Of a DNA stretch of 64,000 nucleotides, positions 6,242 through 64,000 are shown piece by piece. This DNA is from a bacterium (lineage in GTDB: Bacteria > Patescibacteriota > Patescibacteriia > HK-STAS-PATE-3). The stretch covers positions 4,065 to 68,064 of the forward strand of contig JAZDMR010000015.1 in the NCBI GenBank assembly GCA_043800725.1, in the 5' to 3' direction. Both the position numbers and the translations under genes were made by a program. Position 1 is the first letter of the stretch; every line of letters starts with the position of its first letter. The notes beneath the pieces were generated by a model. The model did no database searches. It had not been told where the DNA came from and saw only the letters and a list, made by a program, of their open reading frames with translations.

Positions 6242-7009
6242 ATGTTTGGTAAATTTATACAACAGCAGCGCGCTAAACGAGGAATGACGCAGGAATATCT
6301 AGCGTCACAACTCGATATTTCTCGTCCAACTTATATGCAAATTGAACGGGGAGAAAGAGAGTTAACAGTAAATGAAGCTAAAAAGCTAGCGGCAATTTTT
6401 GATATGTCTCTGGAGAATTTTCTTGCTAAAAAAGAACCAAAACGGAATGTAACTATTGAGAAAAAATCAGTAAGCAAATCATATGATTTACAGATTCGTG
6501 TTACGGAAAAAAATCTCGAGAAATTTAAGCAAGTACTGCTTTATGTATTAAATAAGGTGGGTGGAAAACCAAATGTCGGCGAGACAGTTCTGCACAAGCT
6601 ACTCTATTTCATCGATTTTGATTATTTTGAAAAATTTGAAGAGAATTTAATGGGCGCGACATACATTAAGAATCATCACGGCCCCACTTCAATTGAGCTT
6701 GGTTCGATTATTAAGAATATGCAGGAGCATGAAGAACTTGAAGCTGTAAATAGTAAGTATTTTAAATACCAACAAAAGAAGTATTTACCACGAAAGAGAC
6801 CCAATCTTGATATACTTTCGGCGCGTGAGATAGAGCATATTGATGATGTATTAGCACGTCTCTCAGATAAAAATGCTTCAGAAATAGAAAAATATTCGCA
6901 CGAAGATATTCCGTGGAAGTCCGCACAAGATGGCGAACCACTTTCTTACGAGAGTGTCTTTTACCGCGATGAAAGCCACTCTGTAAGAAATTACGAAGAT
7001 GAACTTTGA
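6242..7009 (+). CDS. XRE-family HTH fused to a Panacea (DUF4065/SocA-like) domain; putative type II antitoxin
   Basis: The N-terminus (QQRAKRGMTQEYLASQLDISRPTYMQIERGERELTVNEAKKLAAIFDMSLENF) is a Cro/C1-type HTH. The C-terminus carries DUF4065 hallmarks (VLHKLLYFIDFDYFEKF...GATYIKNHHGP...LARLSDKNASEIEKYSHEDIPW). The RBS is AAAGGGGAGG. It overlaps the downstream toxin-like gene by 11 nt. Confidence 0.75.
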   Translation: MFGKFIQQQRAKRGMTQEYLASQLDISRPTYMQIERGERELTVNEAKKLAAIFDMSLENFLAKKEPKRNVTIEKKSVSKSYDLQIRVTEKNLEKFKQVLLYVLNKVGGKPNVGETVLHKLLYFIDFDYFEKFEENLMGATYIKNHHGPTSIELGSIIKNMQEHEELEAVNSKYFKYQQKKYLPRKRPNLDILSAREIEHIDDVLARLSDKNASEIEKYSHEDIPWKSAQDGEPLSYESVFYRDESHSVRNYEDEL

Positions 7010-11514: not shown

Positions 11515-14500
11515 TTGGAAATAGAGTTTATGCCAAAGCAAAAGCCACCAATTCACTGGTTCAGATCTCAACCGTTAAATAGCTGGTTTGGAGTGATTAT
11601 AATTATCTTTACGGTAGTTTTTGGCTGTTGGTATTTGTCAGACCAGAATGAAATTAAGCCTCAGGGCGAAGTAAAAGGAGTTTCATATCCGCCCGTTGAC
11701 ACCTATCAAGATCATTGCATCTATCGAGGAGATGTTCCTGATGGGGAGTTGTGCGGAGAATATCAAACCAAGAATCTGGTATCGGAAGATTCCAGTTTTG
11801 AATTCGGGGTAAACGGGACTTATGATTCGATCAGCGTTACTCAAAGGCTGCATTACGATTATTACAATCCGGGCAGCGGTGATATATTTTCGGCTGATCC
11901 GGCCCGCGGCCTGGTAATGACCGAGATTACTGATGAAGATTCGGTTGACGGGGATTACAGCTTAAAATTCGACAATCGCAATGCCGGCGGGGCTTCGATT
12001 GATCTTAATTATATTACTGCTCCGGAAACCGGCCGATATGTTTTTTCGGTTTGGGTAAAGGCCCTGGAAGTGGGAGGCAAAGTTGATGATAATGATTCTT
12101 GCAGTAATAGCGCGATTGGTCTGCGATTAAGAATCTACAATCATATTTGGGCGAACTATACGTCCGGCAACGACCAATTCAGCGTGGCTCCGGCCGACGG
12201 CTGGAAACGCATTTCCGTAGTTTCAACAGTAGATCCCATGATTCAGTCCGGGGAAATCTATCATCCGGAAATTCTGGTCAGCAGCACGGTTCAGCCCCAG
12301 TGCTGGGGCATGGGCGTGCTGCTGATGGACGCGATACAGTTTGAATATGCCGAGAATCAAAGTACCCCCGCGCCGACTGATTATGCATATCAAACCTCGC
12401 AGCAGGAGTTATTTGCCCATACTTCGACTGACGCAGCAGGCACCAACCCGAAAAACGGCAACTTTTACTGGCTGGACGATGAGGAAAATATTTACGCACA
12501 ACTGGAAATACTTGAGCAAGCCGCTTTGTCCAGCAATTCAATAATCAAGTGGCAGCTTTATGACAGCTCTGGAGATTATTTCAATACGGATACTGCCTTG
12601 GATCAGGGCGAGATTCTGATATCCCACTCGGCTTCAAATAGGCAAACCATTACCCAAGATTTAACCAGCATTATCGGATCAGCCGTCCCCGCAAAATCTA
12701 AAGGCTGGTTTACTCTGGCGTATGAATTATGGAATCCGGATGAATCAAAAATGCTTGATAAGGAATTTTTAGTCATGGCGATTGCCGAGAAGTCGCCTTA
12801 TCGAAACCAGGACCTGCCCGATTCGTTTTTTGCCAATCACGTTACTCTGGGATGGCTGGATATAAACAGTGCCTATGATCATCATTTTTTTTCTGCCAAC
12901 CGGCCGCTGAACGAGTATTTGGAAATAGCCAGGGATTTGGGCATTAAATGGTCCAGAGAGTTCAGCTTGATCAGCAAGGATAATATTGAAGATCAGGTGG
13001 ATGAAGATCCTTTTTTGGATGACTATGTTACAGCCGCGGATCAGCATCATATTAACTTAATGCCGGTCATCTCCGGTTCCGAAGGGCCTGAGGGTACTTG
13101 GCAGAGTTACGTAGCCACGGTGGCGGACCATTATGGCGATAACATAAACGTTTATGAAGTGCTTAATGAACCGTATACGCTGGACTATGACGAATATTAT
13201 GAATATTTATGGCGGGCCGAAGAAGCTGTCCGGGAAAATCAAGGCTTGGTCGAGAATCAAGTGTCCGGACCCAGCTGGGGTGACGACTGGCTGGATAATG
13301 TGCTGGGCTACAGCGATGGCATACATGGCACCGGCTATGAATTGTTTGATATTTTTGCGCCGCACTACTATAATCGATTTCAGTATGGGTTTCGACAGAT
13401 ACCCGAGGACGGTGTTGGTATCGGCCAGGCGGATATTGATGAAAGCATTAATACTTGGATGGAACAGCTTGACAGTCAGGCCCCGGGCGGAAGCAATACC
13501 AAGCCGAGCTGGAACTCAGAATTTGGAATTAATCAAACTCGAATTTACCCGGACACGGCCGCCGTCAACGGAGTGCCCGGCTGGGACGGGGATTCAGGCT
13601 GGCAGCGCTGGGATAACATGAGCGGCTCTATCCAGACGGCCAGGAAAATCACTTCTGACTTGATACGAGTGCATTTATATATAATGGCCAATGGGATTGC
13701 CAAAGGTTTTAATTTTGGACTTTTTAATACTTACGCGACAGTCGGTACCGGCTACAGCTATTTTGATTATGATAATACGCCGAACATTACAGCTCCGGCC
13801 TATGCGGAAATGACCAGTTTGCTGGAAAGCAGTAATTTTATTCGCCGAATCGAGACGCCCGAGCTGCGCACCAATGGCGTGCTGGACGACTATAGCCGAG
13901 CGTTTGTATTTGAAGCGCCTGACCTAAACAATCCTGGCGAAACTCGTCCCGTCGCTACGGTGTTTAACTTTGATCAGGAGTTTACTGGCGCGGCCCTGGA
14001 GGATATCCCGATTGATACCGGCAATGTTGATATTTTAGACATGGAAGGAAATCCCATCAGCGTGGCACCCGGATCAAGTTTTAGCGTGGATATTGATATG
14101 GCGCCAATCTATATAATTGGAAAAAATGATTTATCAGTAGAAGATTTAACCAGTGGCTTGGACCAGACCAGGCCATTGGCTCCTTTGCCCAGCTCCATAA
14201 CCGCCTTAAATGGTCTTGTTAAAATAATGTGGACTGAAACGCCGGACAATGATGTAGCCAGCTATAACATTTATCGTAGGGCTTACGGCAGCGGGGATGA
14301 CGACTTGGTAGACAATGTCGCCAGACAAGCTGAATCTGGTACGCTGACATACTATGACAATCCCGGCTCGGGTACTTGGCAGTACCGGATTGCCGCGGTA
14401 GAAGATGGCACCGGCTATGAGGCCAGCTCTGCTTGGCTGCCTGCTGATGGCGTTTATTTAAACTTGCCTCCTGATTTCCCGGCGATTCCAGATAAAGAAG

Positions 14501-15207
14501 TGGCCGAAGGTTCGTTATTGGAATTCACAGTCAGTGCCACTGATCCGGAAGACGACAGTTTAAATTTTAGCTTATCAAATGGACCAATCGGATCCAGCTT
14601 GACTGATCATGAAAATGGTACGGCTACTTTTCGCTGGACTCCGGATTATGACCAGGAGGGCAGCTATTCATTAATTTCTATTGTTGTTACAGATAGTTAT
14701 AATACGATTGGAAGGATTTTTAAGATTATAGTAACTAATACGAATAGAAGCCCAGTACTTCAGGGGAATAATAACCAGTCAATCCACGAAGGAGATGTTT
14801 TAAATCTAACAGTGTCAGGATTGGATGAAGATGGCGATAATACTCTGGCATTTGTGGCTGATAACTTGCCCATAGGCGCCAGCTTTATTGACCATGGCGA
14901 TCGGACGGCTACTCTTAGCTGGTCGCCGACCACCAGTCAAGCCGGTATTTACGACGATATTGCCATCACCGTAACAGACAATCACGCAGCGTCTGATTCA
15001 GATAATATTACTATTACCGTGCTGGATGGTTTGGCTGACTGCGCTCCTGTCTGGCAGTGTACTGGTTGGTCGACCTGTACAAACAGCTTGCAAGCCAGGT
15101 CTTGTACGGATCAAAATGCTTGCGGAACAGATGCTGATAAGCCGGAGGAGGCGCGGGCCTGTGATTCGACTTCGCCCAATGCAATTTCTGACTTGGAAAC
15201 GGAATAA
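11515..15207 (+). CDS. Large secreted multidomain glycoside hydrolase: CBM-like N-domain, GH5-like (clan GH-A) catalytic domain, FN3, two cadherin-like/Ig-like domains and a C-terminal 6-Cys W-rich module
   Basis: Signal anchor (WFGVIIIIFTVVFGCWYL). The GH5 acid/base motif VYEVLNEP and the nucleophile motif WNSEFGI are correctly spaced. An FN3-like segment (VKIMWTETPDNDVASYNIYRR) and two roughly 100-aa repeats (EGSLLEFTVSATDPEDDSLNFS / EGDVLNLTVSGLDEDGDNTLAF) follow. It ends with CAPVWQCTGWSTCTNSLQARSCTDQNACGTD...C. An alternative ATG start lies at 11530. Confidence 0.6.
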   Translation: MEIEFMPKQKPPIHWFRSQPLNSWFGVIIIIFTVVFGCWYLSDQNEIKPQGEVKGVSYPPVDTYQDHCIYRGDVPDGELCGEYQTKNLVSEDSSFEFGVNGTYDSISVTQRLHYDYYNPGSGDIFSADPARGLVMTEITDEDSVDGDYSLKFDNRNAGGASIDLNYITAPETGRYVFSVWVKALEVGGKVDDNDSCSNSAIGLRLRIYNHIWANYTSGNDQFSVAPADGWKRISVVSTVDPMIQSGEIYHPEILVSSTVQPQCWGMGVLLMDAIQFEYAENQSTPAPTDYAYQTSQQELFAHTSTDAAGTNPKNGNFYWLDDEENIYAQLEILEQAALSSNSIIKWQLYDSSGDYFNTDTALDQGEILISHSASNRQTITQDLTSIIGSAVPAKSKGWFTLAYELWNPDESKMLDKEFLVMAIAEKSPYRNQDLPDSFFANHVTLGWLDINSAYDHHFFSANRPLNEYLEIARDLGIKWSREFSLISKDNIEDQVDEDPFLDDYVTAADQHHINLMPVISGSEGPEGTWQSYVATVADHYGDNINVYEVLNEPYTLDYDEYYEYLWRAEEAVRENQGLVENQVSGPSWGDDWLDNVLGYSDGIHGTGYELFDIFAPHYYNRFQYGFRQIPEDGVGIGQADIDESINTWMEQLDSQAPGGSNTKPSWNSEFGINQTRIYPDTAAVNGVPGWDGDSGWQRWDNMSGSIQTARKITSDLIRVHLYIMANGIAKGFNFGLFNTYATVGTGYSYFDYDNTPNITAPAYAEMTSLLESSNFIRRIETPELRTNGVLDDYSRAFVFEAPDLNNPGETRPVATVFNFDQEFTGAALEDIPIDTGNVDILDMEGNPISVAPGSSFSVDIDMAPIYIIGKNDLSVEDLTSGLDQTRPLAPLPSSITALNGLVKIMWTETPDNDVASYNIYRRAYGSGDDDLVDNVARQAESGTLTYYDNPGSGTWQYRIAAVEDGTGYEASSAWLPADGVYLNLPPDFPAIPDKEVAEGSLLEFTVSATDPEDDSLNFSLSNGPIGSSLTDHENGTATFRWTPDYDQEGSYSLISIVVTDSYNTIGRIFKIIVTNTNRSPVLQGNNNQSIHEGDVLNLTVSGLDEDGDNTLAFVADNLPIGASFIDHGDRTATLSWSPTTSQAGIYDDIAITVTDNHAASDSDNITITVLDGLADCAPVWQCTGWSTCTNSLQARSCTDQNACGTDADKPEEARACDSTSPNAISDLETE

Positions 15208-15209
15208 AA

Positions 15210-16853
15210 ATGAACACTCAAGCAAAAAAATTAATAGTTGCCACCATCACTCGAACTGAGATCGTCTCAACTCGGGTAATTCCTTTTTCCATCGTGATAG
15301 GCTTTTCCTCAGTCGCGCTTACCCTGATGTTGAGCTTGGCGGCTAATATGCCCTTTATTAATAATGAATTAATTAGCGCTCAGTACGATGATTCGAATTC
15401 TATTAAACTGACCTGGACCGCACCAGGGGATGATGGACATATGGGCCAGGCTAGTGAATATGAAATTCGCTATGCTATCTCTGAAATTACAAATCAAAAC
15501 TGGAGCGAGGCAACAAGGCTTAGCAATCCCCCAGAACCCCGAATATCTGGCTCAGCTGAATCAGTCCGAGTATTCGACCTAGAGCCGGATACTGAATATT
15601 TTTTTGCTATCAAGTCAATGGACGAGGCTGGCAATATTTCTTATATTTCAAATGTTGCCCATAAAACAACGGCTTGTCTTGAGGACTGGTCTTGTGAAGA
15701 TTGGTCAGATTGCCTTGATGGCATTCATACCCGCATTTGCACAGATCAAAATAGCTGCGGCACGGATCAGAATATGCCTATCCAGCAAGAATATTGCGAT
15801 TTCGGTGGGCCCTCGCCTGATTGTGAAGAATCTTGGAGTTGTACTACCTGGTCAGAATGCCGGGACGAAGGGCAGTATCGATTTTGCATGGATGATAATG
15901 GCTGCGGAACTGATCAAGATCGTCCTGACGAGCTGCAGTCATGCGAAGTAGCAAATCAGCCAGAAAATATCGTGGTAGGCACTCATCCTGGCTATCCGCC
16001 GCATTTGCGAGTCATGAATAAAGACGGTGAAGTTCAGAATCAGTTTTACGCATATTCGCCTCAGTTTACCAATGGCGTCAACTTCACCCGCGGCGACGTG
16101 AATGGCGACGGTGAAAAGGAAATCATCACCGGCACCAATGGCCGATCCGCGCCCCATATTCGCGTATTGAAAGAGGATGGAACAGTCGTTTCCCAATTCT
16201 ATGCTTATCCGGCTCAATGGCGCATAGGAGTTCAAGTTGCCGTGGGCGATATCAACGCTGATGGCACGGATGAAATTATTGTCCTGCCGGCGGTGAAAAG
16301 CGCTGCCCATGTCAGAGTGTTTGATTTCCAGGGCAATCTCCAGGGTCAGTTCTACGTATTCCCGGCTCATTGGCGCTTGCTGTTAAACATTGACTCAGGG
16401 GATCTAAATGGAGATTTGCGCGATGATATTATTGTGGCCACTACCGAAGGCTACACGCCTCATGTGCGTATTTTTTCAGGCCAGGGCCAGCTGATCAGTC
16501 AGTTTTTTGCTTATGCTTTAAATTATCGCGGCGGTGTGGAAATCGCTGTGGGTGATACTAATGGTGATAATATTGATGAAATAGTTACCGGCGCGGGCCA
16601 GGGTTATCATCCGCATGTTAGAATTTTGACAAAAGACGGCGATGTGGTGGGCCAGTTTTACGCTTATGCTTTATCCTATCAAGGCGGGGTTACCTTAAGC
16701 ACGGCGGACGTGGATGGTGATGGCAAAGATGAGGTGGTGGTGGGAACCCGTCCAGGCGCATCAGCTCATGTTAGGATTTTCAAGAACACCGGCGATCTGG
16801 TATCACAATTTTTTGCTTACCCCGAGTATTGGCGCATTGGAGTGGAGTTATAG
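15210..16853 (+). CDS. Membrane-anchored protein: FN3 domain, two 6-Cys W-rich (TSP1-like) modules and a C-terminal six-blade FG-GAP/VCBS-like beta-propeller
   Basis: The TM segment (IPFSIVIGFSSVALTLMLSLAA) is followed by FN3 (IKLTWTAPGDDG...EYEIRYA). Two modules (CLEDWSCEDWSDC...RIC.DQNSCGTD...C) come next. Then there are six roughly 50-aa repeats of the form PH[VI]R[IV]F..G.L.SQF[FY]AY...YR.GV.VAVGD.NGDG.DEI[IV]. The gene starts 3 nt after the previous stop. Confidence 0.6.
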   Translation: MNTQAKKLIVATITRTEIVSTRVIPFSIVIGFSSVALTLMLSLAANMPFINNELISAQYDDSNSIKLTWTAPGDDGHMGQASEYEIRYAISEITNQNWSEATRLSNPPEPRISGSAESVRVFDLEPDTEYFFAIKSMDEAGNISYISNVAHKTTACLEDWSCEDWSDCLDGIHTRICTDQNSCGTDQNMPIQQEYCDFGGPSPDCEESWSCTTWSECRDEGQYRFCMDDNGCGTDQDRPDELQSCEVANQPENIVVGTHPGYPPHLRVMNKDGEVQNQFYAYSPQFTNGVNFTRGDVNGDGEKEIITGTNGRSAPHIRVLKEDGTVVSQFYAYPAQWRIGVQVAVGDINADGTDEIIVLPAVKSAAHVRVFDFQGNLQGQFYVFPAHWRLLLNIDSGDLNGDLRDDIIVATTEGYTPHVRIFSGQGQLISQFFAYALNYRGGVEIAVGDTNGDNIDEIVTGAGQGYHPHVRILTKDGDVVGQFYAYALSYQGGVTLSTADVDGDGKDEVVVGTRPGASAHVRIFKNTGDLVSQFFAYPEYWRIGVEL

Positions 16854-16922
16854 GAATTAGCTAATTTTGTTTGTCACCCTGCGCATCAAGTGCGGGGCAG
16901 GCGTCAAGAACCAAAGGTGATG

Positions 16923-17108
16923 GGGGAGACCCTTCCCCCGGATCGGGTCCGGGGTCAGGGATTCACATGCGTATTGCTGAGCTTGCGAAGCATCTCCACT
17001 TGCCCTGAGTGCCTGGGGAGACCCTTCCCCAGGATTCGAGTCCGGGGTCAGGGATGCAATCCGTGCTCCGAAGTGGGACGAAGCATCTCCCCGCGTCAGC
17101 TGTTTATA
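16923..17108. repeat. Two tandem copies of a roughly 93-bp GC-rich element, each carrying a conserved hairpin with compensatory loop variation
   Basis: Unit 1 (16923-17015) and unit 2 (17016-17108) share GGGGAGACCCTTCCCC[C/A]GGAT..G.GTCCGGGGTCAGGGAT and GAAGCATCTCC. The hairpin is CCCC-GGA-loop-TCC-GGGG. The region is about 60% GC within a much lower-GC neighbourhood, and the overlapping 75-aa ORF is probably not coding. Confidence 0.5.
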
Positions 17109-17757
17109 TTAGTATGAACCGCCCCCCAACCGTAACGCTGGAGATTTATTAAATTAATATACTCAACAGTTTACGCGGACGGAATATCTGGTTAAAAGAA
17201 AAAAGGCCCCGTCCTCGACGAAGCCTTACAGAGAATTTTTGAATTCTACTTGGAGGGATCTCAGATAGTGCCATGCTAATGATCGCGATCCTATATTTGC
17301 GATCATGACTCTATCGTATTGTTAGCCTCCTTGCTATGTGATGGTATTCTCCGTAAGGTCTGTCAAAGAAGACAGGGCCCCACTTCAAACGTGCTCTTTG
17401 AAAAGATATTTATGAGTTTAAATTATTTATTTTTAACTGTCAATTGCTGCTTTAATGGCCTTGGCTATTTACTGATAAATATTGATTTTGATAGGCTAAT
17501 ATTAGGTTATTTGGCCTGTCTGATTTTTCGTTAACTACGAGTTTCCGGATAGATTCCGACGAATATCAGGATAGCGCCACCTGTGATGATTTCAAAGGTT
17601 GACAATCCGACCAGGGAAAAAATAAGCTAGCGCAATTGCGGTAAAAGAAGTAATAATATTTTTCATTTATTGTTTATCACCTGTTCAGTATAATTAATTG
17701 TATGTTTTTGCATATTATTGCTATAGTGTAGGCGATTTAGAATTAATATTTTTACTT

Positions 17758-20292: not shown

Positions 20293-22200
20293 CTAACGCA
20301 CCACTACTCCGGAGTTGTTAAAAATATTCCAATCCTGCTCAAATCTATCAGTTGTCCAATATAAGACGCCGGCATAAGGGTCATTGAGAATGATTTTTGA
20401 AGGATTTTCCGCATTGCCGACAAAGCCGACCACGGTGCGGGCATGTTCGCCTTTCCAGGCGTAAATATATTTGCCATCCTGGGTATACCAAGAGTCTTCA
20501 TAGCCCGAGCCGTATATTCCCCAGGTGATCACCGGATTACCTTGAGCAATTTCATGAGTAAGCTGTGCTACAGTCCAGCCAGTGAATGCTTCAGCCGATC
20601 TCCACTGATCAGCAGCGCGAGCAATTGGATCCCAATAAACTCCATAACCAGTAGTGTTTTGACGGCCGCTAATATCTCCCACGTAGGCCAAGTAAGGATC
20701 GCCCCAGACATTGCCCTGATGGCTAGTCGAGTCGTAGCCGACCAGATCCATAATTTCGGTTTCGGTAACAGATATGCCCTTGTAGCTCAAGGCCATTTTT
20801 AGGGCGGCTGCTTCACATGACAAAGATTGATCCTGAAAATCTTGAGCAATAGCCAACTTAATTGTTTCCGGGGCAGTAGCAAACTTAACTTTATAATCTT
20901 GGTCAGAATCAAGTCCATAAGTACTTTTTATTCCGCTGTGAATTGTCAGCTGATAAGTATAATTGTAAGCCAGGTCGCCGCTGGGCGTAAAAATCATGGT
21001 ATTGCCATCCCAGGAAAATTCGCCTTGATGAGCAGGATCAATTTGAAACTTACTTTCAGCTGAGGCGCGGTCGACCTCTTGGTCAAAGCTGACTCGAATT
21101 GTGTTATTGATCCCCACGCCGGTCGTTCCATCCTGAGGGCTGAGATGAGAAACGCTAACCCGGCCAATCGTATTAAAACTAAAATTTATATCTTCTACTA
21201 AGTACCCGCCTTGAGCATTTTTTGTCCCTACTGGTATGGTTACCTGATATTCTGTTTCATAACTTAGGAATTCCGGGGTAAAGGTGAGAATTTTATTATT
21301 ATCCGATAAACTGATCAGGCCCTGGGTATCCGGACTGATAGATAAATTTCCCTTAATAGAAGTTTCGTCCATTGCCTGGCTAAAGGTAATGGAAATATTT
21401 TCATCAACATGAATATCATCGCCAGTCGGGCCCACCTCTTCTACTTTGGGTGGAGGCGCGGTCTTATATGAGCCTTGGTAGAGTTTCTTCGGCTCATCCT
21501 GAAATACCACCTCATGACTTTGTTTGTCTTTAACCATCCAGATACGATTTATTACTAGTTTATAGTCAGCGCCTTGAACCAAGGGTTGATTTGGCGTGAG
21601 AGTGTATTGATCCAGTGAATTATTAACTGCTTTGGTAAATTCAATCTCGGGTTCAAACAGAAATTCAAATTCAGCTAAATCCGGATTAGGTTCTGTTAAG
21701 TTAATTTTAAATGTAGTCTCGGGAGACAATCCAGTTTTTTCATCAGCCGGGATAACGCTGGAAATATCAGGGAGAGATCGAGTAGTAAAGCCATAAGTAA
21801 TGGTTTTTGAATCACTCAGGTCATAAATGCTTTTAATGTTTTCTAGCTGGACGCGATACTCTGTTTCCGGCCTTAATGATTGATTAGGCACAAAGCGAAG
21901 TGTGCGAAAAAGATGTTTGGTAATAATAGGGTCTTCATAAATCCATTCACCGTCTACCTCTGGTTCGATGGTTGCAATTAAACTGTCTCTATCTATAGGC
22001 TTGTTAAAAGAAATTACCACGCTCGAATCTAGGGCTACGTTTAAAGTTGATTTATTTGGCGATAGTTTCTCAACTTGGGGAGCAAGCATGAAGTAGTACG
22101 CAAATATTAAAAAAAGCGCCAGAGCGCAAATAATCAATAGAGATATTACTATTCTAATAATAATTCCTTTTGTTTTTATTTTCTTTTCTGGCAATTCCAT
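20293..22200 (-). CDS. Membrane-anchored protein with tandem Ig-like (Big/SbsA-like) domains and a C-terminal C39-like (BtrH/Peptidase_C39_2) cysteine peptidase domain
   Basis: N-terminal TM (IIIRIVISLLIICALALFLIFAYYF). The C-terminus has candidate catalytic Cys (QSLSCEAAALKMALSY) and His (WKGEHARTVVGFVG) in the spacing typical of C39-like domains. Confidence 0.55.
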   Translation of the reverse strand: MELPEKKIKTKGIIIRIVISLLIICALALFLIFAYYFMLAPQVEKLSPNKSTLNVALDSSVVISFNKPIDRDSLIATIEPEVDGEWIYEDPIITKHLFRTLRFVPNQSLRPETEYRVQLENIKSIYDLSDSKTITYGFTTRSLPDISSVIPADEKTGLSPETTFKINLTEPNPDLAEFEFLFEPEIEFTKAVNNSLDQYTLTPNQPLVQGADYKLVINRIWMVKDKQSHEVVFQDEPKKLYQGSYKTAPPPKVEEVGPTGDDIHVDENISITFSQAMDETSIKGNLSISPDTQGLISLSDNNKILTFTPEFLSYETEYQVTIPVGTKNAQGGYLVEDINFSFNTIGRVSVSHLSPQDGTTGVGINNTIRVSFDQEVDRASAESKFQIDPAHQGEFSWDGNTMIFTPSGDLAYNYTYQLTIHSGIKSTYGLDSDQDYKVKFATAPETIKLAIAQDFQDQSLSCEAAALKMALSYKGISVTETEIMDLVGYDSTSHQGNVWGDPYLAYVGDISGRQNTTGYGVYWDPIARAADQWRSAEAFTGWTVAQLTHEIAQGNPVITWGIYGSGYEDSWYTQDGKYIYAWKGEHARTVVGFVGNAENPSKIILNDPYAGVLYWTTDRFEQDWNIFNNSGVVVR

Positions 22201-33679: not shown

Positions 33680-34294
33680 ATGCCTGAGCAGGATAATATT
33701 TCATCCCGCAATTTAGCGAATAAGTATTTATCTGACTCAGAAGACATTTCAGCGGAGTTGGATACTAAAATAACCGTTAGTTCGAAAATGGCTTATTCAC
33801 CAAAATTTGCCGTAATTACCGTGCTAAGTATAGTAATTATTACTGGCTTGGTGTTACTTTTAATTCCTGAAAAAAATACCAGCACCACGGACCAAACGTC
33901 AAATTCAATTGCTGATTCTTTAAAAGGTTCGATTCAATCGTTGCTGCCCGAGCCAAGTTTAGATGAATTAAATGAGCTGCCCGCTAGTTTGGAAAACTCT
34001 CGGTCCTCAGGCCTAATTAAACGAGCTGATAATCAACCAGAAGCCAGTCAATCATCCGTCTCCACAGATCAGGATCTTTTTCAGGCAGACAGTGACGCGG
34101 ATGGCTTATTGGATCGTTTGGAAGCCAGATATAAGACCGATCCGCAGAAAACAGATACAGATAATGACGGCCTGAGTGATTTACTGGAAATTTATGTCCA
34201 TAAAACTGATCCCCTGGCTGCTGATACAGATAATGACGGTTATTCGGATCAGCAAGAGGTTGACAGTGGCTATAACCCCAACGGGCCCGGATAA
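33680..34294 (+). CDS. Membrane-anchored protein with a paralogous C-terminal TSP3-like Ca-binding repeat domain
   Basis: TM helix (FAVITVLSIVIITGLVLLLI). The C-terminus DSDADGLLDRLEARYKTDPQKTDTDNDGLSDLLEIYVHKTDPLAADTDNDGYSDQQEVDSGYNPNGPG is alignable to the C-terminus of the upstream gene. Confidence 0.5.
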   Translation: MPEQDNISSRNLANKYLSDSEDISAELDTKITVSSKMAYSPKFAVITVLSIVIITGLVLLLIPEKNTSTTDQTSNSIADSLKGSIQSLLPEPSLDELNELPASLENSRSSGLIKRADNQPEASQSSVSTDQDLFQADSDADGLLDRLEARYKTDPQKTDTDNDGLSDLLEIYVHKTDPLAADTDNDGYSDQQEVDSGYNPNGPG

Positions 34295-35081: not shown

Positions 35082-36347
35082 ATGAAACCTAAAATCGCCC
35101 CGACTTCACCAAAATATCAAGTTGAAAATTCAGTAGATGATTTATACCGCAGAGATGAACAAAAATCATTTCAGCAGCCGTCTGTCAGGGCAAGATGGCT
35201 GCCCACAGTATTATTTTCAGTTTTGTTCGGCTTATTGGCGGGGGCAGCCGGAATGGTCACTTTAAATAGTTTATACCAACAGAACTCTCAATGGCCGGCT
35301 TGGCGCTGGATTGGGATAACCAGTGAACTTCGCCCGGAGCGAGAAGTGATAATACGGGAAGCGGGCAGCATTGAAAGAGTTGACCAAGAAAGGCAAGAAA
35401 CCTACGATCGTGTCTCAGCAATGCTGGTCAGCATTTACCAATCATCTGCTGACAGCTCGGCCCCCTTAAACCAACGAGTGGTATCCCAGGAAGCATATTT
35501 AGGGACTGGAGTTTTAGCTACCGAGGACGGCTTAGTGGTATTGGATTCATCCTTGATATCAAATAGCCAGCATGATTATCTTGCTGTAACAAATTCAGGC
35601 CAAACCTATCCATTAAATTTAGTTGCCACTGATCCGTTGAGCGATTTGGGGCTTGGGCAGATAAAGGGTAGCGGTTTTCCGGTTGTCGCCTTTGTAGTGG
35701 AGTCTGATCTGCAAATAGGCCAGGAACTATTAGCCTTGAATTCAAATAATCTGGCCGGTCCACCCAGTCTTTGGACTTCATCGTTGAGCAGCATAAACTC
35801 ATTACCTGAATTATTGCGAGGGGCGCCGGAATCCAGCGATTCACTGGATCGATCAATTCAATTGTCTGATAGCCATCAACCATGGGCGGCGGGGACGATT
35901 GTGATTGATATGGACGGTGCCATGGTTGGTATGAAGGTGGGCGAACTGGATGATAACTTAATATTTCCCGTAAGGTATATCCGGACTGCCCTGCAAAGCT
36001 ATTTACAGAATCAAGAAATTGAGCGGCCCCAGCTAGGCGTTACTGCGTATGATTTATCGGCAACAGTAGGATTGCTTGATAGTGAAACGAATAAAAGATC
36101 AGCCGGCGCCCTCTTGGCGGCAGGCCAGGACCTTCAGTCTTCCGCGGTAATGGCTAATTCAACAGCTCAGGAAATGGGCTTGGCAGAAGGCGACATTATC
36201 ATAAAAATAAATGATCAAGAAATTACCGTAGAACGCAGTTTGGCGGGTATTATTCAGTCTTTTGAAGTGGGCAGTGAGGTAAATGTTGTTTATCTGCGCG
36301 ATGGCATTGAGCTAAAAGCCGAAGGAGTTTTAGGAAACGCCCTATGA
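35082..36347 (+). CDS. HtrA-like trypsin-fold + PDZ protein with an apparently degenerate catalytic triad (candidate pseudoprotease)
   Basis: N-terminal TM. The core GTGVLATEDGLVVLDSSLI...LVATDPLSDLGLGQI parallels HtrA GSGFIIS.DGYILTNNHVV...VVG.DP.TDLAVLKI, but His is replaced by Leu/Ser. The GNSGGP serine motif is replaced by AAGTIVID. A C-terminal PDZ is present (GLAEGDIIIKINDQEI). Confidence 0.4.
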   Translation: MKPKIAPTSPKYQVENSVDDLYRRDEQKSFQQPSVRARWLPTVLFSVLFGLLAGAAGMVTLNSLYQQNSQWPAWRWIGITSELRPEREVIIREAGSIERVDQERQETYDRVSAMLVSIYQSSADSSAPLNQRVVSQEAYLGTGVLATEDGLVVLDSSLISNSQHDYLAVTNSGQTYPLNLVATDPLSDLGLGQIKGSGFPVVAFVVESDLQIGQELLALNSNNLAGPPSLWTSSLSSINSLPELLRGAPESSDSLDRSIQLSDSHQPWAAGTIVIDMDGAMVGMKVGELDDNLIFPVRYIRTALQSYLQNQEIERPQLGVTAYDLSATVGLLDSETNKRSAGALLAAGQDLQSSAVMANSTAQEMGLAEGDIIIKINDQEITVERSLAGIIQSFEVGSEVNVVYLRDGIELKAEGVLGNAL

Positions 36348-39178
36348 AGCAAAGGTCCTGGATAATTTTAATAATTACCTTATTATCGGGTTTTGCGTTT
36401 ATGCAAACTGCGCTGTCTTCTGAAAACAACAGCCAGTCGAACAGCAATGCGCTGGAAGCTGAAATCGTGGTTAAATTCAATTTGCCGCCCCGATTGGGCC
36501 CGCCACAGAATATTGCCACCACCCCATGGCCAGAAGTAAATGATATTATTAACCAAGCAGAGATTTCAGCATTGTTTCCTTTGCAGAGCAGTAATGATCC
36601 AGTGCTGTTTTTAGCAAAACTTAATAATTCTCAGAATCGAGATTGGGCTATTAATCAGCTTGGAGAACTGTCAGTGGTAAATTATGTTGAGCCTAATTAT
36701 TATGTTGAGTTGGCTTATGTCCCCAATGACCCACTGCTAAATCAGCAATGGAATTTTACCAAGATAAATATGGCTGAAGCTTGGGATTATGACACAGTTG
36801 CTCCGAAATACGGCGGTGACCCGAGTATTGTCGTGGCTGTTTTGGATACCGGGACTGCTTATGAGGATTACATCGATCCCAATCCGGCTTACTGTATAAT
36901 AGGAGGAGATAAAGAAGGTATTTGCGTTGCCGAGAATGCCGAGTATGCCCAGGCGTCAGATTTTGCATCAACAGCTTTTGTGGCGGGGTATGATTTTATC
37001 AATGATGATACCCATGCTAATGATGATAATGGCCATGGTACGCATGTGTCAGGCACAATTGCTCAATCAACCAACAACAGCCTAGGCGCTGCTGGCACAG
37101 CTTTTAATTCGACAATTATGCCCATCAAGGTGATTGCCCGGGACGGTCTGGGCACTACGGCGGCTATTGCTCAGGGCATAGATTTTGCCCGTGAAAAAAT
37201 GGTTGATGTGATTAATATGAGCATTGGCACGATCAGCAACAGCCAAGTCATGCTGGATGCGGTTAAGCTGGCTGATCAGGCCGGTATTATTATGATTGCT
37301 TCAACCGGCAACAGCAGCGCAAGTTTTATCTATTATCCGGCTGCTTATGATCAAGTCATCGCCGTAGGCGCGACGGGAAATACCAGCGTAAATACCCGGG
37401 CATCATATTCAAATTATGGCGAAGGCATTGATTTGGTAGCTCCCGGCGGCGATGGATCATCTTCGATTGTCCAGCAAGGGTTTTCAAATCTGGATAATGA
37501 TGATTTGCCCCTTGATTTCACAACTTTTGGCTATGTCGGATATCAGGGAACTTCTATGGCAGCACCGCATGTCAGCGGAGGAGTGGCTCTGGCTCTAGCA
37601 TATGGTGTAAACAGTTCCGAGGTAGGCGATTTATTGCTTAGCTCAGCAGAAGACATAGGCGCTGACGGATATGACTTGGAAACCGGCTACGGTTTATTGA
37701 ATATCGAGGAATTATTTGTCCAGTTAACCACTGACAGTGATCCTCCGACTTCTAGCTTGTCAATTAATCCGGTAGAGCCCAACGGCGAAGGTGGCTTTTA
37801 TACCTCAACACCCATCATCAACCTAACCGCTGAAGACCAGCAGTCTGCGATTAAATCGATCTATTATCGTTGGGGCAGCGACGCATATCAGGAATACTCG
37901 GGGTCAATTTCCGCTCCGGAAGGAGTTAGCGAGCTTGACTACTACGCAGTGGACGTGGTTGACAATCAAGAAGTTGCCAAACATCAGGAAGTTAAAGTTG
38001 ACAAAACCGCCCCTGAAGTAAGTTTTAGTTACCCGTTTACCGGTGCGGCCACTTCATTGCGCCGGCATTACATCATCAGTCGAGCATCAGATGCCACTTC
38101 CAATATCAGTTATGTAACGGTAAATGGTATTCTGGCGGATTACCAACCGCCCGAGTTTGTGGCCACCATTCTTTTGAAGCCAGGCCTAAACACCGTAACC
38201 GTGGCAGCTTATGATCAAGCCGGACTTTCCAAGACCGTGACCGATACGATGCTTTATGATGTCTGGGTAAATGTATTAAGCGCGCCTTTATCAGCCAGGA
38301 GCCCATCCGTCAGAACTTTCTCGGCCGGCGGACAGAACCTAGGAGAAATTATGGCCTATCCGGAATCGTTTACCGGGGGAGTAAATATTGCTTCCGGGGA
38401 CGTTGATAAAGATGGTTTGACTGAATTTGTCACCTCTCCGGCTTCAAGCGGCGGCCCCCAGGTCAGAATCTTCAATTCTTTGGGGCAGCTGGAAAGCCAA
38501 TTTATGGCTTACTCATCCAGCTATCGCGCTGAGACCACCCTGGCGGTTTGTGATCTGGATAATGACGGACGCGATGAAATTATTACCGGCACGGGCGAGA
38601 GCCGAGCCCCGCACTTAAGAATTTTTCATGCTGACGGCTCTTTATATGGGCAGTTTTTTGCCTACCCCGAAAGCTATCGAATCGGCATTTCAGTAGCTTG
38701 CGGTGATGTTAATGGCGATTTAAACAACGACATTGTGGTCGCTCCCATTAATAACGGCGGTCCGCATGTCAGGATATTTGACGGGTTTGGTAATTTGCAA
38801 AGCCAGTTTTTTGCCTACCCCGAGTATTTTCGGATCGGCTTAGGGATTGCTGTGGGCGACGTAAACAATGACGGCAGGGGTGAAATTATCGTCGCTCCTT
38901 TGAAAAACGGCGGTCCGCATATCAGGGTATTTAACAACAGCGGCGAATTACTCAGTCAATTCTTTGCTTTTGCTGAGTTTTTTAAAGGCGGCGTACGGGT
39001 GTCTTCGGATGATGTTGATCAAGACGGCATTGACGATATTATTGTAGGTGCAGGCGTAGGGGGCGGACCTCATATCAGGATTTTTCAGGCCGACGGTCAG
39101 TTGATAAATCAATTCTATTCCTTTGACCTAAGTTTCCGGGGCGGCATCAATGTCGGTACTATTTACGAGCCTAAGTAA
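36344..39178 (+). CDS. Secreted subtilisin-like serine protease (S8) with I9-like propeptide, Ig-like middle domains and a C-terminal six-blade FG-GAP-like beta-propeller
   Basis: Signal peptide. The catalytic triad is VAVLDTGTAYED (Asp), HGTHVSGTIAQ (His) and GTSMAAPHVSGGVALAL (Ser). The C-terminal 290 aa consist of six repeats (GGP[HQ][VI]R[IV]F...SQFFAYPE.[FY]R.G..VA.GDVN.DG..EII), paralogous to the repeats of the 15210..16853 gene. Confidence 0.8.
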   Translation: MKQRSWIILIITLLSGFAFMQTALSSENNSQSNSNALEAEIVVKFNLPPRLGPPQNIATTPWPEVNDIINQAEISALFPLQSSNDPVLFLAKLNNSQNRDWAINQLGELSVVNYVEPNYYVELAYVPNDPLLNQQWNFTKINMAEAWDYDTVAPKYGGDPSIVVAVLDTGTAYEDYIDPNPAYCIIGGDKEGICVAENAEYAQASDFASTAFVAGYDFINDDTHANDDNGHGTHVSGTIAQSTNNSLGAAGTAFNSTIMPIKVIARDGLGTTAAIAQGIDFAREKMVDVINMSIGTISNSQVMLDAVKLADQAGIIMIASTGNSSASFIYYPAAYDQVIAVGATGNTSVNTRASYSNYGEGIDLVAPGGDGSSSIVQQGFSNLDNDDLPLDFTTFGYVGYQGTSMAAPHVSGGVALALAYGVNSSEVGDLLLSSAEDIGADGYDLETGYGLLNIEELFVQLTTDSDPPTSSLSINPVEPNGEGGFYTSTPIINLTAEDQQSAIKSIYYRWGSDAYQEYSGSISAPEGVSELDYYAVDVVDNQEVAKHQEVKVDKTAPEVSFSYPFTGAATSLRRHYIISRASDATSNISYVTVNGILADYQPPEFVATILLKPGLNTVTVAAYDQAGLSKTVTDTMLYDVWVNVLSAPLSARSPSVRTFSAGGQNLGEIMAYPESFTGGVNIASGDVDKDGLTEFVTSPASSGGPQVRIFNSLGQLESQFMAYSSSYRAETTLAVCDLDNDGRDEIITGTGESRAPHLRIFHADGSLYGQFFAYPESYRIGISVACGDVNGDLNNDIVVAPINNGGPHVRIFDGFGNLQSQFFAYPEYFRIGLGIAVGDVNNDGRGEIIVAPLKNGGPHIRVFNNSGELLSQFFAFAEFFKGGVRVSSDDVDQDGIDDIIVGAGVGGGPHIRIFQADGQLINQFYSFDLSFRGGINVGTIYEPK

Positions 39179-53847: not shown

Positions 53848-56820
53848 TTATTTAATAGGCTTAAAAAATACATCCTGTATCCAGAGAGGACATTCCTGCA
53901 AATCCGAACCTTCTAGCAGCTGGCTGTTTTCATCAAACAAGACCATTTGCAATTCATTAGAACCGGACGGGATAGTAATAGGCAGGCTGACTGATTGAAA
54001 ACTAGACCAATTAATAGTTAGGGATGAAATTGTCTCTCCGTTTAATAATATCACCGCCCGGCGGTAAGCGTCAGGACAGGTATAAGTACTAAAATTCAGT
54101 TCTCCCGACAGCTGTTCTGACTGTGGCGAATCAAGACTAAGCGAAGCGTAGTTTTTAGTTTTTCTCTTTTGTGATGCCTGACCCTTATTTTCCAGGATAT
54201 CCCAGTTTTTGCTCAAACGAATAATTAGAGGAGTATCTTCGTCCGAAGACGGCGGCAGCTGGTAGTAGTCCCACTCGTCAGTCGTGGAAACCACCATTGA
54301 CCCGACTGTTGATATTAAGTATTTGTTCCAGGCCAAAGCTTCCTCAGGTTCAAGCAGGTTTTTATGCACTAATACCTGCTGGATATTTTCCCGGTCTGCC
54401 AGGTAGCGCAAGCTGGACTGATAATAATTTTCTTCAATAATATCGTGATATGAGCGCAGCGAGCCAAAGGTGTTTGCGGCATTTCGGGATTCGATCAGCA
54501 AGGGCCAGCGAAGAATTACCTTAGGCTCAAAAATCGAGTTTCCGGCAAATATCTCCTGGGGATTTACAATGTTATAGGCTGAATATTCTGAACCGAATAG
54601 CGGCACTTGCAAAGTGGTATTTTGACCAGCGTACTCAGACAGAAGGCTGCTGATATCGTCTTGATTGTTTGATATTGGCAAAGCTTCGATTTCCGAGATA
54701 AACACCGGCGGATCAGGTTCTTGACTCAGGTCAAGCTGTTCGATTCGTTGTCCCAGAAATTGCAAAGTGTTAGCTTCCATACTGGATAATGGTACATTAA
54801 CCTGGTATTGTCGCGGCTGATCATCCACTAGAAACTGGGCTAGGATTTGCTCATCCTGCAGGATTTGAAGATTACGTATCGAGCCTAAGGCAGCCTTGGC
54901 TATAAATCTCAGGTTAAGACTGTTTTGCTGGTTAATATTATTAATTATCAATTCGCTTTGTTGGCCAGTAAGCTGATATTGACGCTCGTCATCAATTTCC
55001 GTGCCGTTCCATTCGCCGGATTGGACCAAAATTGGCGCTGAATAGTCTTGCTCGGATAGTTTATAAGCAATTAAGTCAGAGTCTTGGTAAATTTCTTCTG
55101 TATGCACATAGTTTCTTAGGAAATTCCTGATCCGGATAAAGTCATCCAGCTCTATTTCGTCATCAGCAGAGCCCAGGTAGTTTTTATGAAGGATAATGTA
55201 ACGTACGTCATAGTATTGGAGAACGCCGGTATTGGCGTCCGCGTTAGCTAGGCTGATCGGAAGAGAGGTCACTATGTCGCTGCCCCGGGGGAAGCTGTAA
55301 AGAAGGGATTTTAAAATTGGGATAGAAATATTCCTGACGTAGAGCGGGTTTTCAGGATTGAATCGGGCGGGTTGAAAAAAATTAATCATCTTCTTACCGT
55401 GAATTGATCGATAATATTGTGATTTGGCCGCAGATCGGTAGTTGGTTGAGCTCGGAATCTCGAGGATAGCGAAATCACCAGGTTCCTGACGCAGGGAATT
55501 GTAAAAATGTGGATAATCAAGAGATGTTGTGGGATAGGGTAGAGCGAAAAATTCAAAGATGATAAAACCGGACAGCAGTATTACGAGTATGTGCTGGCCG
55601 TGGAGAGCCAGTCGGAAACGTTGGACCAGATAAACAAACCCATAGGCAGCGGCAACTGCGAAACACATCATCGAAATTACAGCTATACGGTCAACGGATC
55701 TAATATTGTTAAAGTACGGTAGAAAGTGATGAAGGAGCAGATAGGGTAGGGGTATTTTTGGTTCGACAACCCCACCAAAGTGCAAAAAGGGGCCAATGGA
55801 CAGAATGTAAAAACTAAAAGCGCCAACCGCCCAAAAGATGCTGTCGCGTGACTTTCGGTAGATCAGTACAAGTATGGCAAGACTCAGCACCACGATACCT
55901 ACATAGGCGGAGTGTTCGAATTCATTTCCGGTAAAAGAATTTCGAACATCAGCAAATAACGGACCAATCAGCGTATGAGTAAAAGGAGGGGTAAGAAGGC
56001 TTAATGCGTCATTGGAATATGCTATGGCCGATTTTATTCCCGGATTGAGGTAGTTGTTTTCAGATGAAGCAATTTTAAGAAACGACGCGGATATTATTAT
56101 GAAAATAACTGCGATAACACCGATTCCTATTGCGCAGTTTCGAATGAACGCCAGATTACGCCAGAAACTCGGATATTTACGCAGATACCACCATAACAGA
56201 GGGGGTAGAAAAAGTAAGTAAAACGCTATAAAATGTATTTCGTTGACCGCTAGAAAAATAAAAAAAATAGCGGCTCCGAATACATAGCGTAATTTTTGAA
56301 ATCGAATAGCTTTAAGGATAAACAGGGTCGTCAGTGGTATCCATTCAATATGCGTTGAGCCGCGAAAGCCCATTCCCCAGATGAAATGAATAGGCGCAAA
56401 TCCATAGATTAACCCGGCCATAAAGGACGCATAGGTAATCAACCGTTCGGTCACTTTCTCTTTTGTTGTTGCGAAAGTTTCTCTGATAAGAAATCGCGTC
56501 AAGGCAAAGGCTCCGTACGAGGCGGCGATAAAGGAAAAAAGCCAATAGAGATTGTATGCGAGAGTGACGTCAACAACAGTGTTGAGATAGCTGACAATTG
56601 ATACAGTATCAATGCGTACGTGAGTGATGATTTCTTGGATGCTGCCCCAGAAACCGAGAGCCTTCAGCTCCTCACTGAAATGAATTACGTCGGCCACCGT
56701 TTGATGGGAATCGCTTCCTAGCCCGGCAATTTCCGAGTTGATGTTGAGAATGACGGGATACGTCAGCAACAGAGTCAAAACAGTGTAGGCGGCAATGATA
56801 ACGAGTGTTTTTTTCAACAA
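53848..56820 (-). CDS. Large polytopic membrane protein (990 aa): N-terminal domain of about 13 TM plus a roughly 540-aa extracytoplasmic C-terminal domain; GT-C/YfhO-like candidate
   Basis: Its topology resembles YfhO/PMT/ArnT-type lipid-linked-sugar transferases or polymerases. No motif-level confirmation is possible by eye. Confidence 0.3.
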   Translation of the reverse strand: MLKKTLVIIAAYTVLTLLLTYPVILNINSEIAGLGSDSHQTVADVIHFSEELKALGFWGSIQEIITHVRIDTVSIVSYLNTVVDVTLAYNLYWLFSFIAASYGAFALTRFLIRETFATTKEKVTERLITYASFMAGLIYGFAPIHFIWGMGFRGSTHIEWIPLTTLFILKAIRFQKLRYVFGAAIFFIFLAVNEIHFIAFYLLFLPPLLWWYLRKYPSFWRNLAFIRNCAIGIGVIAVIFIIISASFLKIASSENNYLNPGIKSAIAYSNDALSLLTPPFTHTLIGPLFADVRNSFTGNEFEHSAYVGIVVLSLAILVLIYRKSRDSIFWAVGAFSFYILSIGPFLHFGGVVEPKIPLPYLLLHHFLPYFNNIRSVDRIAVISMMCFAVAAAYGFVYLVQRFRLALHGQHILVILLSGFIIFEFFALPYPTTSLDYPHFYNSLRQEPGDFAILEIPSSTNYRSAAKSQYYRSIHGKKMINFFQPARFNPENPLYVRNISIPILKSLLYSFPRGSDIVTSLPISLANADANTGVLQYYDVRYIILHKNYLGSADDEIELDDFIRIRNFLRNYVHTEEIYQDSDLIAYKLSEQDYSAPILVQSGEWNGTEIDDERQYQLTGQQSELIINNINQQNSLNLRFIAKAALGSIRNLQILQDEQILAQFLVDDQPRQYQVNVPLSSMEANTLQFLGQRIEQLDLSQEPDPPVFISEIEALPISNNQDDISSLLSEYAGQNTTLQVPLFGSEYSAYNIVNPQEIFAGNSIFEPKVILRWPLLIESRNAANTFGSLRSYHDIIEENYYQSSLRYLADRENIQQVLVHKNLLEPEEALAWNKYLISTVGSMVVSTTDEWDYYQLPPSSDEDTPLIIRLSKNWDILENKGQASQKRKTKNYASLSLDSPQSEQLSGELNFSTYTCPDAYRRAVILLNGETISSLTINWSSFQSVSLPITIPSGSNELQMVLFDENSQLLEGSDLQECPLWIQDVFFKPIK

Positions 56821-57112
56821 AAGCGCATTTTATGGTTAGTCATACAATAAGCAATATATCATTAAATGGCACTGTTTTCAAATATGTGATGTTTGACTTA
56901 CATGGTCATTAGGATTGTGGAGATTTCATTAATCTTTAAGAAGTTGTTAGCAGTAATTGTGTTATTAGTGAGAACCGTTCATATTGTAAAATGATGAATT
57001 ATATGATAATCTCTCTACTTAGAATATATTAAGATACTCTTTAAATCTCCTAAGTATAAAAAAAAATATTTTGAAATTCGATAATCCTAAGAACTAAAAA
57101 TCCACAACTGAA

Positions 57113-59287: not shown

Positions 59288-59334
59288 TTACTCCCTAACC
59301 ATTTTAAGTCAGGTAGAGTTTATTCTGTATAAAC

Positions 59335-60603: not shown

Positions 60604-60604
60604 T

Positions 60605-62104: not shown

Positions 62105-62133
62105 AGGCTTCTATTCTAGCAAAAAACTTAATA

Positions 62134-63929: not shown

Positions 63930-64000
63930 ATTTATTTCTTAATACAAATAAAAAGACCCGTATAATAAGCGGAGTTTGTTTTTTTGTCATTGAGAAATAA

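Follow-up and report, generated by a model that had tools for sequence, protein, structure and literature searches.

A repeated six-cysteine mini-domain in surface proteins of Patescibacteria and DPANN archaea

The thrombospondin type-1 repeat (TSR) is regarded as a domain of animals and apicomplexans (PMC3417536), and its six cysteines pair either as C1-C5, C2-C6 and C3-C4 (group 1) or as C1-C4, C2-C5 and C3-C6 (group 2) (PMC11990869). Genomes belonging to the candidate phyla radiation (CPR, or Patescibacteria) code for exported proteins that are large and rich in cysteine, some with FG-GAP repeats, and that may serve rigidity or attachment (PMC4736985). The literature on cysteine-rich or TSR-like domains in CPR and DPANN lineages yielded only general remarks on cysteine-rich exported proteins. 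Here we describe a small six-cysteine module that recurs in two adjacent genes, ORF1 and ORF2, of a 64,000-nucleotide (nt) stretch of patescibacterial DNA (GenBank assembly GCA_043800725.1, contig JAZDMR010000015.1, positions 4,065 to 68,064 of the forward strand). This stretch is hereafter the window, and coordinates are its own unless another locus is named. An earlier note, made from the letters of the window alone, had pointed out the repeat, likened it to a TSR and suggested that it links a secreted hydrolase to a propeller-bearing partner.

The module is 41 amino acids (aa) long in the window and occurs there in three copies, all on the plus strand. Copy 1 forms the C-terminal domain of ORF1 (Cys1 to Cys6 at 15040..15162, aa 1176-1216), and copies 2 (15675..15797, aa 156-196) and 3 (15822..15944, aa 205-245) stand one after the other in ORF2. 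Their independent E-values (i-E) with a hidden Markov model (HMM) are 2.8e-18, 6.4e-19 and 3.1e-17, respectively. The three peptides that the earlier note quoted are present exactly as written, and the sequence match and the HMM together confirm the repeated six-cysteine module. The HMM, which was trained on modules from other proteins (749 in all), found no further module in any frame when run against the six-frame translation of the 64-kb window. Sixteen columns are invariant across the three copies: the six Cys, two Trp, and S, R, D, N, G, T, D and P. The cysteines are concentrated in the modules, with 12 of 12 in ORF2 falling inside its two copies and 6 of 11 in ORF1 inside its single one. 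Identity between copies is 38-42% at the amino-acid level and ~ 70% at the DNA level, the latter over a 42-nt core only. Given this low DNA identity we reject a recent duplication; a chance origin is likewise rejected, given E-values of about 1e-18 per copy. The repeat is ancient.

The module is abundant well beyond the window. Among 1.84 billion representatives of protein clusters at 50% identity, an exhaustive hmmsearch with the profile of the three copies matched 6,335 proteins (E ≤ 1e-3); 1,512 of these reach E ≤ 1e-10 and 154 reach E ≤ 1e-30. Single proteins have up to 15 matched stretches, and the period in tandem arrays is 42-47 aa. Over 749 modules the consensus reads C-[TV]-[EP]-N-W-S-C-T-D-W-S-x-C-x-N-G-x-Q-T-R-T-C-T-D-x-N-x-C-G-T-T-x-N-K-P-x-E-T-Q-S-C, and W10 (97%), W15 (96%), R25 (94%), D29 (95%), N31 (82%) and P40 (96%) are strongly conserved. 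Isolated modules have no match in Pfam-A (2025) or NCBIfam (2026) at E ≤ 1. Ten proteins with 6-10 copies gave no Pfam family over their modules at E ≤ 0.1, their flanks carrying CARDB, Kelch, S-layer and PG_binding_1 domains, and a 90-module profile found 0 matches among PDB sequences at E ≤ 10. NCBIfam includes a cysteine-rich repeat model from Myxococcus; the NCBIfam scan of the module did not match it or any other model. Nearly all of the 120 relatives listed for a six-module segment lack a Pfam domain, and NCBI or JGI gives them the name ‘hypothetical protein’. The profile search with the three copies, proposed earlier as a check, returned an abundant family that matched no described domain, in line with the initial impression that this is not a recognised named one. 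The module is a real, abundant and autonomous domain of about 41-46 residues, absent from the libraries tested (Pfam-A, NCBIfam and PDB sequences), and is so far an unnamed and undescribed family.

Carriers were sought with a degenerate DNA pattern (W-x-C-x2-W-x2-C-x6-R-x-C-x-D-x-N-x-C) in one genome per GTDB species, which gave at least 120 loci. The HMM confirmed 120 of the 120 listed, comprising 129 ORFs and 212 modules. Tallied from record titles among the matches listed, so that proportions are indicative only, the carriers are Woesearchaeota (at least 37 loci), Nanoarchaeota (at least 14), Pacearchaeota (at least 12), Aenigmatarchaeota (at least 10), Nanohaloarchaea (at least 3), Micrarchaeota and Iainarchaeum (at least 1 each), unspecified ‘archaeon’ (at least 16) and ‘Methanosarcinales’ (at least 11). 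Bacterial titles are CPR (Paceibacterota, Saccharibacteria, Kerfeldbacteria, Staskawiczbacteria and ‘Patescibacteria group’; at least 8), unspecified ‘bacterium’ (at least 1) and ‘uncultured Gammaproteobacteria’ (at least 6). The taxonomic check thus names Patescibacteria and, above all, DPANN archaea among the matches listed, and the tally indicates that the module is widespread in surface proteins of these two groups, with Methanosarcinales also among the labels. The ‘uncultured Gammaproteobacteria’ titles belong to metagenome-assembled genome (MAG) records, at loci L004, L014, L019, L037, L044 and L120. At least two of these labels look unreliable because the proteins are typical of Patescibacteria: P0032, which belongs to the ORF2 family, has a counterpart of 100% identity at L120, and the L004 protein is 37% identical over 865 aa to one from Kerfeldbacteria. 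The same DNA pattern recovered the module in only 4 of 2.9 million viral contigs (IMG/VR), and the module is therefore essentially cellular. No match came from 50,697 phage records when modules or TSRs served as tblastn queries, and low-complexity masking may be the reason.

The two host genes in the window are plus-strand neighbours with 2 nt between them. ORF1 (11515..15207) encodes 1230 aa (1225 aa in the public record), arranged as an N-terminal hydrophobic helix (about nt 11584-11637, read by eye), an enzyme-like region of ~ 950 aa, a Big_9 domain (nt 14491-14700), a He_PIG domain (nt 14767-15021; both Pfam matches) and the terminal module. ORF2 (15210..16853; 547 aa, protein P0001) has an N-terminal hydrophobic helix (about nt 15279-15347, again by eye), an fn3 domain (nt 15390-15635), the two modules and an FG-GAP/VCBS beta-propeller (about nt 15972-16850; Pfam matches); its sequence is the same as that of a MAG protein in GenBank (contig JBDRPK010000028.1, GCA_043827125.1). 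As each protein has a single N-terminal hydrophobic helix, both are extracytoplasmic and probably membrane-anchored; the early description of them as secreted holds for the side of the membrane, and we refine it to probable anchoring. The designation of ORF1 as GH5-like found no support in searches: Pfam and PDB sequences assigned no family to aa 1-980, and for the central 400 aa neither gave a match even at E 10. What speaks for it are NEP and SEFG motifs, seen by eye only.

What might such a module do? We think it somewhat likelier than its alternatives taken together that the module is a rigid, disulfide-locked connector or stalk, a reading argued from where it sits in proteins. An N-terminal hydrophobic segment is present in 184 of 207 carrier proteins, and the modules are mostly mid-protein. 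The last module of DPANN proteins typically stands ahead of a linker of 10-60 aa, a hydrophobic (membrane-spanning-like) helix at the C-terminus and a basic tail, and a Gly-rich linker often comes before it; this would place it as a membrane-proximal stalk. Partner domains are very diverse (fn3, FG-GAP, CARDB, Kelch, S-layer, PG_binding_1, GH43, GH18, cohesin, dockerin and Big_9), and the module is therefore general-purpose rather than tied to one activity. As a rigid, protease-resistant unit, it would act in single copies or in beads-on-a-string arrays to space catalytic or adhesive heads from the membrane anchor. In the window, one module would cap the membrane-anchored, enzyme-like ORF1 protein, and two would form a neck between the fn3 domain and the propeller of the putatively co-transcribed ORF2. 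An added ligand-binding (adhesive) role is possible by analogy with TSRs. An enrichment of MdbA-like oxidoreductase and VKOR is reported for CPR bacteria (bioRxiv 10.1101/335083); these enzymes make disulfides outside the cytoplasm and could do so for the module.

Several points weigh against a connector or stalk. The spacer role is drawn from position only, and the conserved, surface-capable residues D29, N31, G34, T35 and P40 could reflect binding or a Ca2+ site. Copy 1, at the extreme C-terminus of ORF1 and far from the N-terminal anchor, does not occupy the place of a stalk. The stability of disulfides outside the cell is less obvious in anoxic habitats, where many carriers live, and no thiol-disulfide oxidoreductase gene was found among the window ORFs scanned, a subset of all ORFs.

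A separate cysteine motif was also observed in DPANN proteins. Directly after the modules of L009, L069, L076, L031, L040 and L074, and ahead of the C-terminal membrane helix, there is a second pattern of approximately C-x-[ND]-G-x2-[ND]-x-[DG]-E-x-G-[IV]-D-C-G-G-x-C-x2-C, sometimes in 2-3 tandem copies. It had no Pfam match in the two proteins scanned (L009 and L076).

Homologues of ORF2 show how the module is deployed at comparable loci. The family is patescibacterial and has the architecture fn3-(module)n-FG-GAP, with n = 1-4 and the modules in the same position; one subfamily has Y for W10 and ‘TNGCPAGLDQP’. A gene for a large exo-enzyme-like protein abuts the ORF2-family gene upstream, in the same direction, at seven of nine loci, and there is none at the other two. 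The frame uvrB / ... / FG-GAP / ruvA / femAB is kept at four of the nine (L123, L124, L128 and L130). The seven upstream partners are three ORF1 orthologues, two GHL15-like proteins, one Hepar_II_III_C-like protein and one without a family match. This arrangement invites the idea that the C-terminal module of ORF1 docks onto the modules of ORF2 and tethers both proteins on the cell surface, close to the linking role first suggested. Beyond the 2-nt spacing of the two genes, it draws on the fact that a module at the extreme C-terminus is retained by each of the three ORF1 orthologues (those at L125:7727-7864 and L127:5831-5968 among them), directly upstream of the fn3-module-FG-GAP gene. However, these orthologues are the only upstream partners to carry a module of their own (three of seven); the two GHL15-like proteins, the Hepar_II_III_C-like protein and the one without a family match have none. 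Moreover, the module is found in thousands of proteins of unrelated architecture without such a neighbour, in arrays of up to 15 copies, and beside C-terminal anchors in archaea. We consider docking improbable, and these patterns do not support a hydrolase-to-propeller link as the general role of the module.

Fusion proteins bear on the same question from both sides. The L004 protein is organised as GH43-MopE-2 modules-FG-GAP (the L111 protein is related and lay outside the domain scan), and the L014 protein as an unknown domain-4 modules-FG-GAP. That such fusions exist argues that enzyme and propeller work together, a point which docking would share, but within them the modules would form an intramolecular neck between the two parts rather than a contact between proteins. 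Thus conserved adjacency and fusion uphold the functional pairing of the two genes suggested in the earlier note, whereas docking through the module, as a general role, does not follow. The between-domain or pre-anchor position, the bead arrays and the GH43-module-FG-GAP fusions lead us to favour a connector or stalk over a dock between hydrolase and partner.

Two observations concern the surroundings of these genes. About 2.5 kb downstream of the pair of ORF1 and ORF2 orthologues in L127 (L127:10192-11602) lie a bAvd-like gene and a reverse transcriptase gene (RVT_1), an arrangement typical of diversity-generating retroelements, which target CPR and DPANN surface proteins. The window itself encodes a second FG-GAP propeller protein (36344-39178, +), which is fused to an S8 subtilase and a Glucodextran_B-like domain and has no six-cysteine module. 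S8-FG-GAP proteins are abundant among ORF2 homologues. Given this abundance and the S8-FG-GAP protein of the window, the FG-GAP propeller looks like a domain that Patescibacteria use repeatedly to target extracellular hydrolases.

The fold of the module was approached by structure prediction and, independently, by covariation. AlphaFold2 (AF2), given copy 3 with a 90-module alignment, returned a model with a mean pLDDT of 88.5 and strands at 10-12, 22-24, 27-29 and 43-45. A tandem model of copies 2 and 3 shows the same strand pattern in each module; its linker has a pLDDT of about 61 and its pTM is 0.38, suggesting that the modules are independent beads. Mean-field direct coupling analysis (DCA) used 1,208 unique modules, with an effective number of sequences (Neff) of about 1,120. 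All six cysteines are kept in 1,113 of these modules. C2 and C4 are lost jointly in 83 modules, C2 alone in 2 and C4 alone in 0; the replacements are T/V-type residues, and the other four cysteines are retained. Because the two are lost together and almost never singly, C2 and C4 form a disulfide, and the top DCA coupling, C12-C27, is this same pair. The disulfide-type module of the earlier note is borne out by this paired loss. Couplings among C1, C3, C5 and C6 are artefacts of invariance and were not used to assign the other bonds; we infer two disulfides besides C2-C4, for a proposed total of three.

Paired loss also speaks to the idea that the cysteines bind a metal (Zn, Fe or Cu), making the module an extracellular metal-binding or redox unit. 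Six invariant cysteines within 41 residues, the anoxic origin of many carriers and the MopE-type metal-binding motifs that lie beside modules in some proteins would suit such a site. Loss of C2 and C4 as a pair while the other four cysteines stay is, however, typical of a disulfide and not of a Cys4 or Cys6 site, and on this ground we reject metal-cluster binding. There are also no His/Cys CxxC-type spacings, and no ferredoxin or metal-binding family was matched in Pfam or NCBIfam. A metal-binding role is accordingly the reading in which we place almost no belief.

The remaining couplings agree with the predicted strands. Next after C2-C4 is Q23-Q44, with R-E, K-E, H-E and E-R charge swaps, followed by W15-R25, for which F15 together with Q25 is observed seven times where about 0.3 would be expected. 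Further couplings are W10-D29 and E8/T35 versus P8/V,I35. DCA and AF2 agree on the antiparallel pairing of strand A (10-12) with B2 (27-29) and of B1 (22-24) with C (43-45). The module is confidently predicted to fold as a small beta structure, with backing from covariation, and the couplings indicate one Trp-Arg contact, W15-R25. In the proposed fold, strand A (W10-x-C12) would pair antiparallel with the second half of the central strand B (C27-x-D29), and the first half of B (Q23) would pair with the C-terminal strand C (Q44). W15 would pack on R25 to give a compact, TSR-like layered core.

Other features of the window lie apart from the two genes. Immediately downstream of ORF2, ~ 0.9 kb (16854-17757) is without a convincing ORF and contains a GC-rich, 45-nt direct repeat (16921-16965 and 17014-17058; 73% identity, 93 nt apart) that occurs nowhere else in the window. 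The gap has no Rfam match at gathering thresholds and could hold a small RNA or regulatory element. From about 56000 to 64000, G+C content falls from about 0.44 to 0.28-0.34, and the genes, of surface-glycan biosynthesis types, encode a polysaccharide deacetylase, a methyltransferase, GT1 glycosyltransferases, a Polysacc_synt flippase and a PMT_2 mannosyltransferase-like protein. The stretch has the look of a glycan island of low G+C. A protein with HTH_3 and SocA/Panacea domains (6242-7009, +), an antitoxin-type architecture, is encoded upstream of the asparaginase and DUF2207 genes. On the minus strand, 20293-22200 encodes a 635-aa exported protein with four Big_5 domains and a Peptidase_C39_2 domain, a large surface protein without the module. 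Finally, a 204-aa protein (33680-34294, +) matches TSP3_bac (E 3e-16), a family of bacterial thrombospondin type-3 repeats, which bind calcium and are unrelated to the module.

So, is the module a TSR? Foldseek comparison of the single module with 350,542 PDB chains gave seven matches, six of them to TSR-bearing proteins (C8alpha, C9, C7, MIC2 TSR6 and F-spondin TSR4). The top five PDB matches of the tandem model were Sema5A TSR3-4 (two chains), pleiotrophin, C8alpha and C9, and BFVD gave as its top match a phage protein with the name ‘Thrombospondin type-1 (TSP1) repeat’. Since TSR chains make up little of the PDB, their repeated enrichment is unlikely to be random. Yet all of these matches are non-significant (E 0.38-9, TM-score ≤ 0.5), and Foldseek 3Di+AA scoring may favour small, Cys/Trp-rich domains. 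Sequence comparison gave no link. Pfam TSP_1 (PF00090) matched neither single modules (E ≤ 1) nor the ten multi-copy proteins (E ≤ 0.1), and the empty search of PDB sequences covered 56 distinct sequences that match a TSR query. An hhalign comparison with a profile of seven PDB-verified TSRs reached a probability of 3.3% and aligned only C-x2-G-x-Q-x-R-x-C. The C2-C4 bond of the module belongs to neither the group 1 nor the group 2 pattern. On these grounds (non-significant structural matches, no match to TSP_1 or by hhalign, and a C2-C4 bond that fits neither pattern), the module is TSR-like at best and is not a TSP_1 family member by any tested criterion. The resemblance first noted therefore stands only in part: structure prediction gave a confident small beta fold with TSRs as top neighbours and one Trp-Arg contact from covariation, but the TSR match itself is weak, the contact is single, and family membership falls away.

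True homology would make the module a divergent prokaryotic TSR, adhesive and binding glycans or proteins, by which CPR and DPANN episymbionts would hold on to host cells or polymers. In each of the three Foldseek searches TSR proteins come first, the six cysteines, the first-strand Trp, the second-strand Q/R-x-R-x-C and the W15-R25 covariation recall a TSR, and the carriers belong to the surface of organisms that are thought to be host-attached. Set against the failed family tests and the cysteine pattern, as well as the shorter length, the W-x4-W spacing and the single conserved Arg that leaves no multi-layer ladder, this evidence makes homology rather doubtful, at perhaps one chance in a few. 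Our reading is of a compact mini-domain, layered and TSR-like, in which one Trp-Arg layer would have given way to a disulfide and which would work as TSR-type beads do. More speculatively, and to our minds unlikely, the module is a prokaryotic ‘mini-TSR’ of the TSR superfold, ancestral-like or convergent, which expanded specifically in the surface proteomes of the ultra-small CPR and DPANN episymbionts and was exchanged between them, for attachment to host cells or glycans. If so, TSRs, regarded as an adhesion domain of animals and apicomplexans, would have a prokaryotic counterpart, and episymbionts would share an adhesion toolkit across domains. Should the TSR relationship hold, a classic eukaryotic adhesion fold would extend to prokaryotes.

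Regardless of its relationship to TSRs, the module matters for annotation. Thousands of CPR and DPANN surface proteins are annotated ‘hypothetical’ largely because no family model covers their repeat units, and this module by itself is behind at least 6,335 of the protein clusters at 50% identity. A family defined by a Pfam-type model, a map of its disulfides and a structure would improve annotation of the surface proteome behind the attached lifestyle and provide a marker across bacterial and archaeal radiations. The conserved, module-bearing fn3-FG-GAP protein, paired with or fused to variable extracellular glycan-active enzymes, suggests a surface enzyme-targeting system.

The parallels between the module and known systems differ in kind. 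Like TSRs (e.g. PDB 1LSL, 1VEX and 8J64), the module is small and extracellular, has six cysteines and a proposed three disulfides, carries a Trp on the first strand and an Arg on the second with a Trp-Arg contact, and occurs as tandem beads in surface proteins. Unlike TSRs, it is prokaryotic, has 41-46 aa rather than 50-70 aa, has W10-x4-W15 rather than WxxW, and has one conserved Arg (R25) and no ladder, with Q23 where TSRs have a second Arg. The TSR-like half-domains of pleiotrophin and midkine (PDB 2N6F) are likewise small, disulfide-stabilised, three-stranded antiparallel and tandem, but have a different cysteine pattern and no sequence similarity; 2N6F is the third Foldseek match of the tandem model (E 2.3, TM 0.18, rmsd 22 Å). 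Epidermal growth factor (EGF) domains are connected as C1-C3, C2-C4 and C5-C6, and knottins as C1-C4, C2-C5 and C3-C6. C2-C4 by itself is compatible with the former and incompatible with the latter; Pfam scans gave no EGF family match, and no EGF structure is among the Foldseek PDB neighbours. The cysteine-rich exported proteins of CPR genomes (PMC4736985) share the setting of the module carriers, but what was described there is cysteine content and not this domain. In deployment, the module resembles the fn3, Big, PKD and CARDB spacers, which are repeated interdomain units between anchor and head and often occur in the same proteins. These are Ig-like sandwiches of about 90 aa without disulfides, whereas the module, as proposed here, is a disulfide-locked mini-domain of 41 aa.

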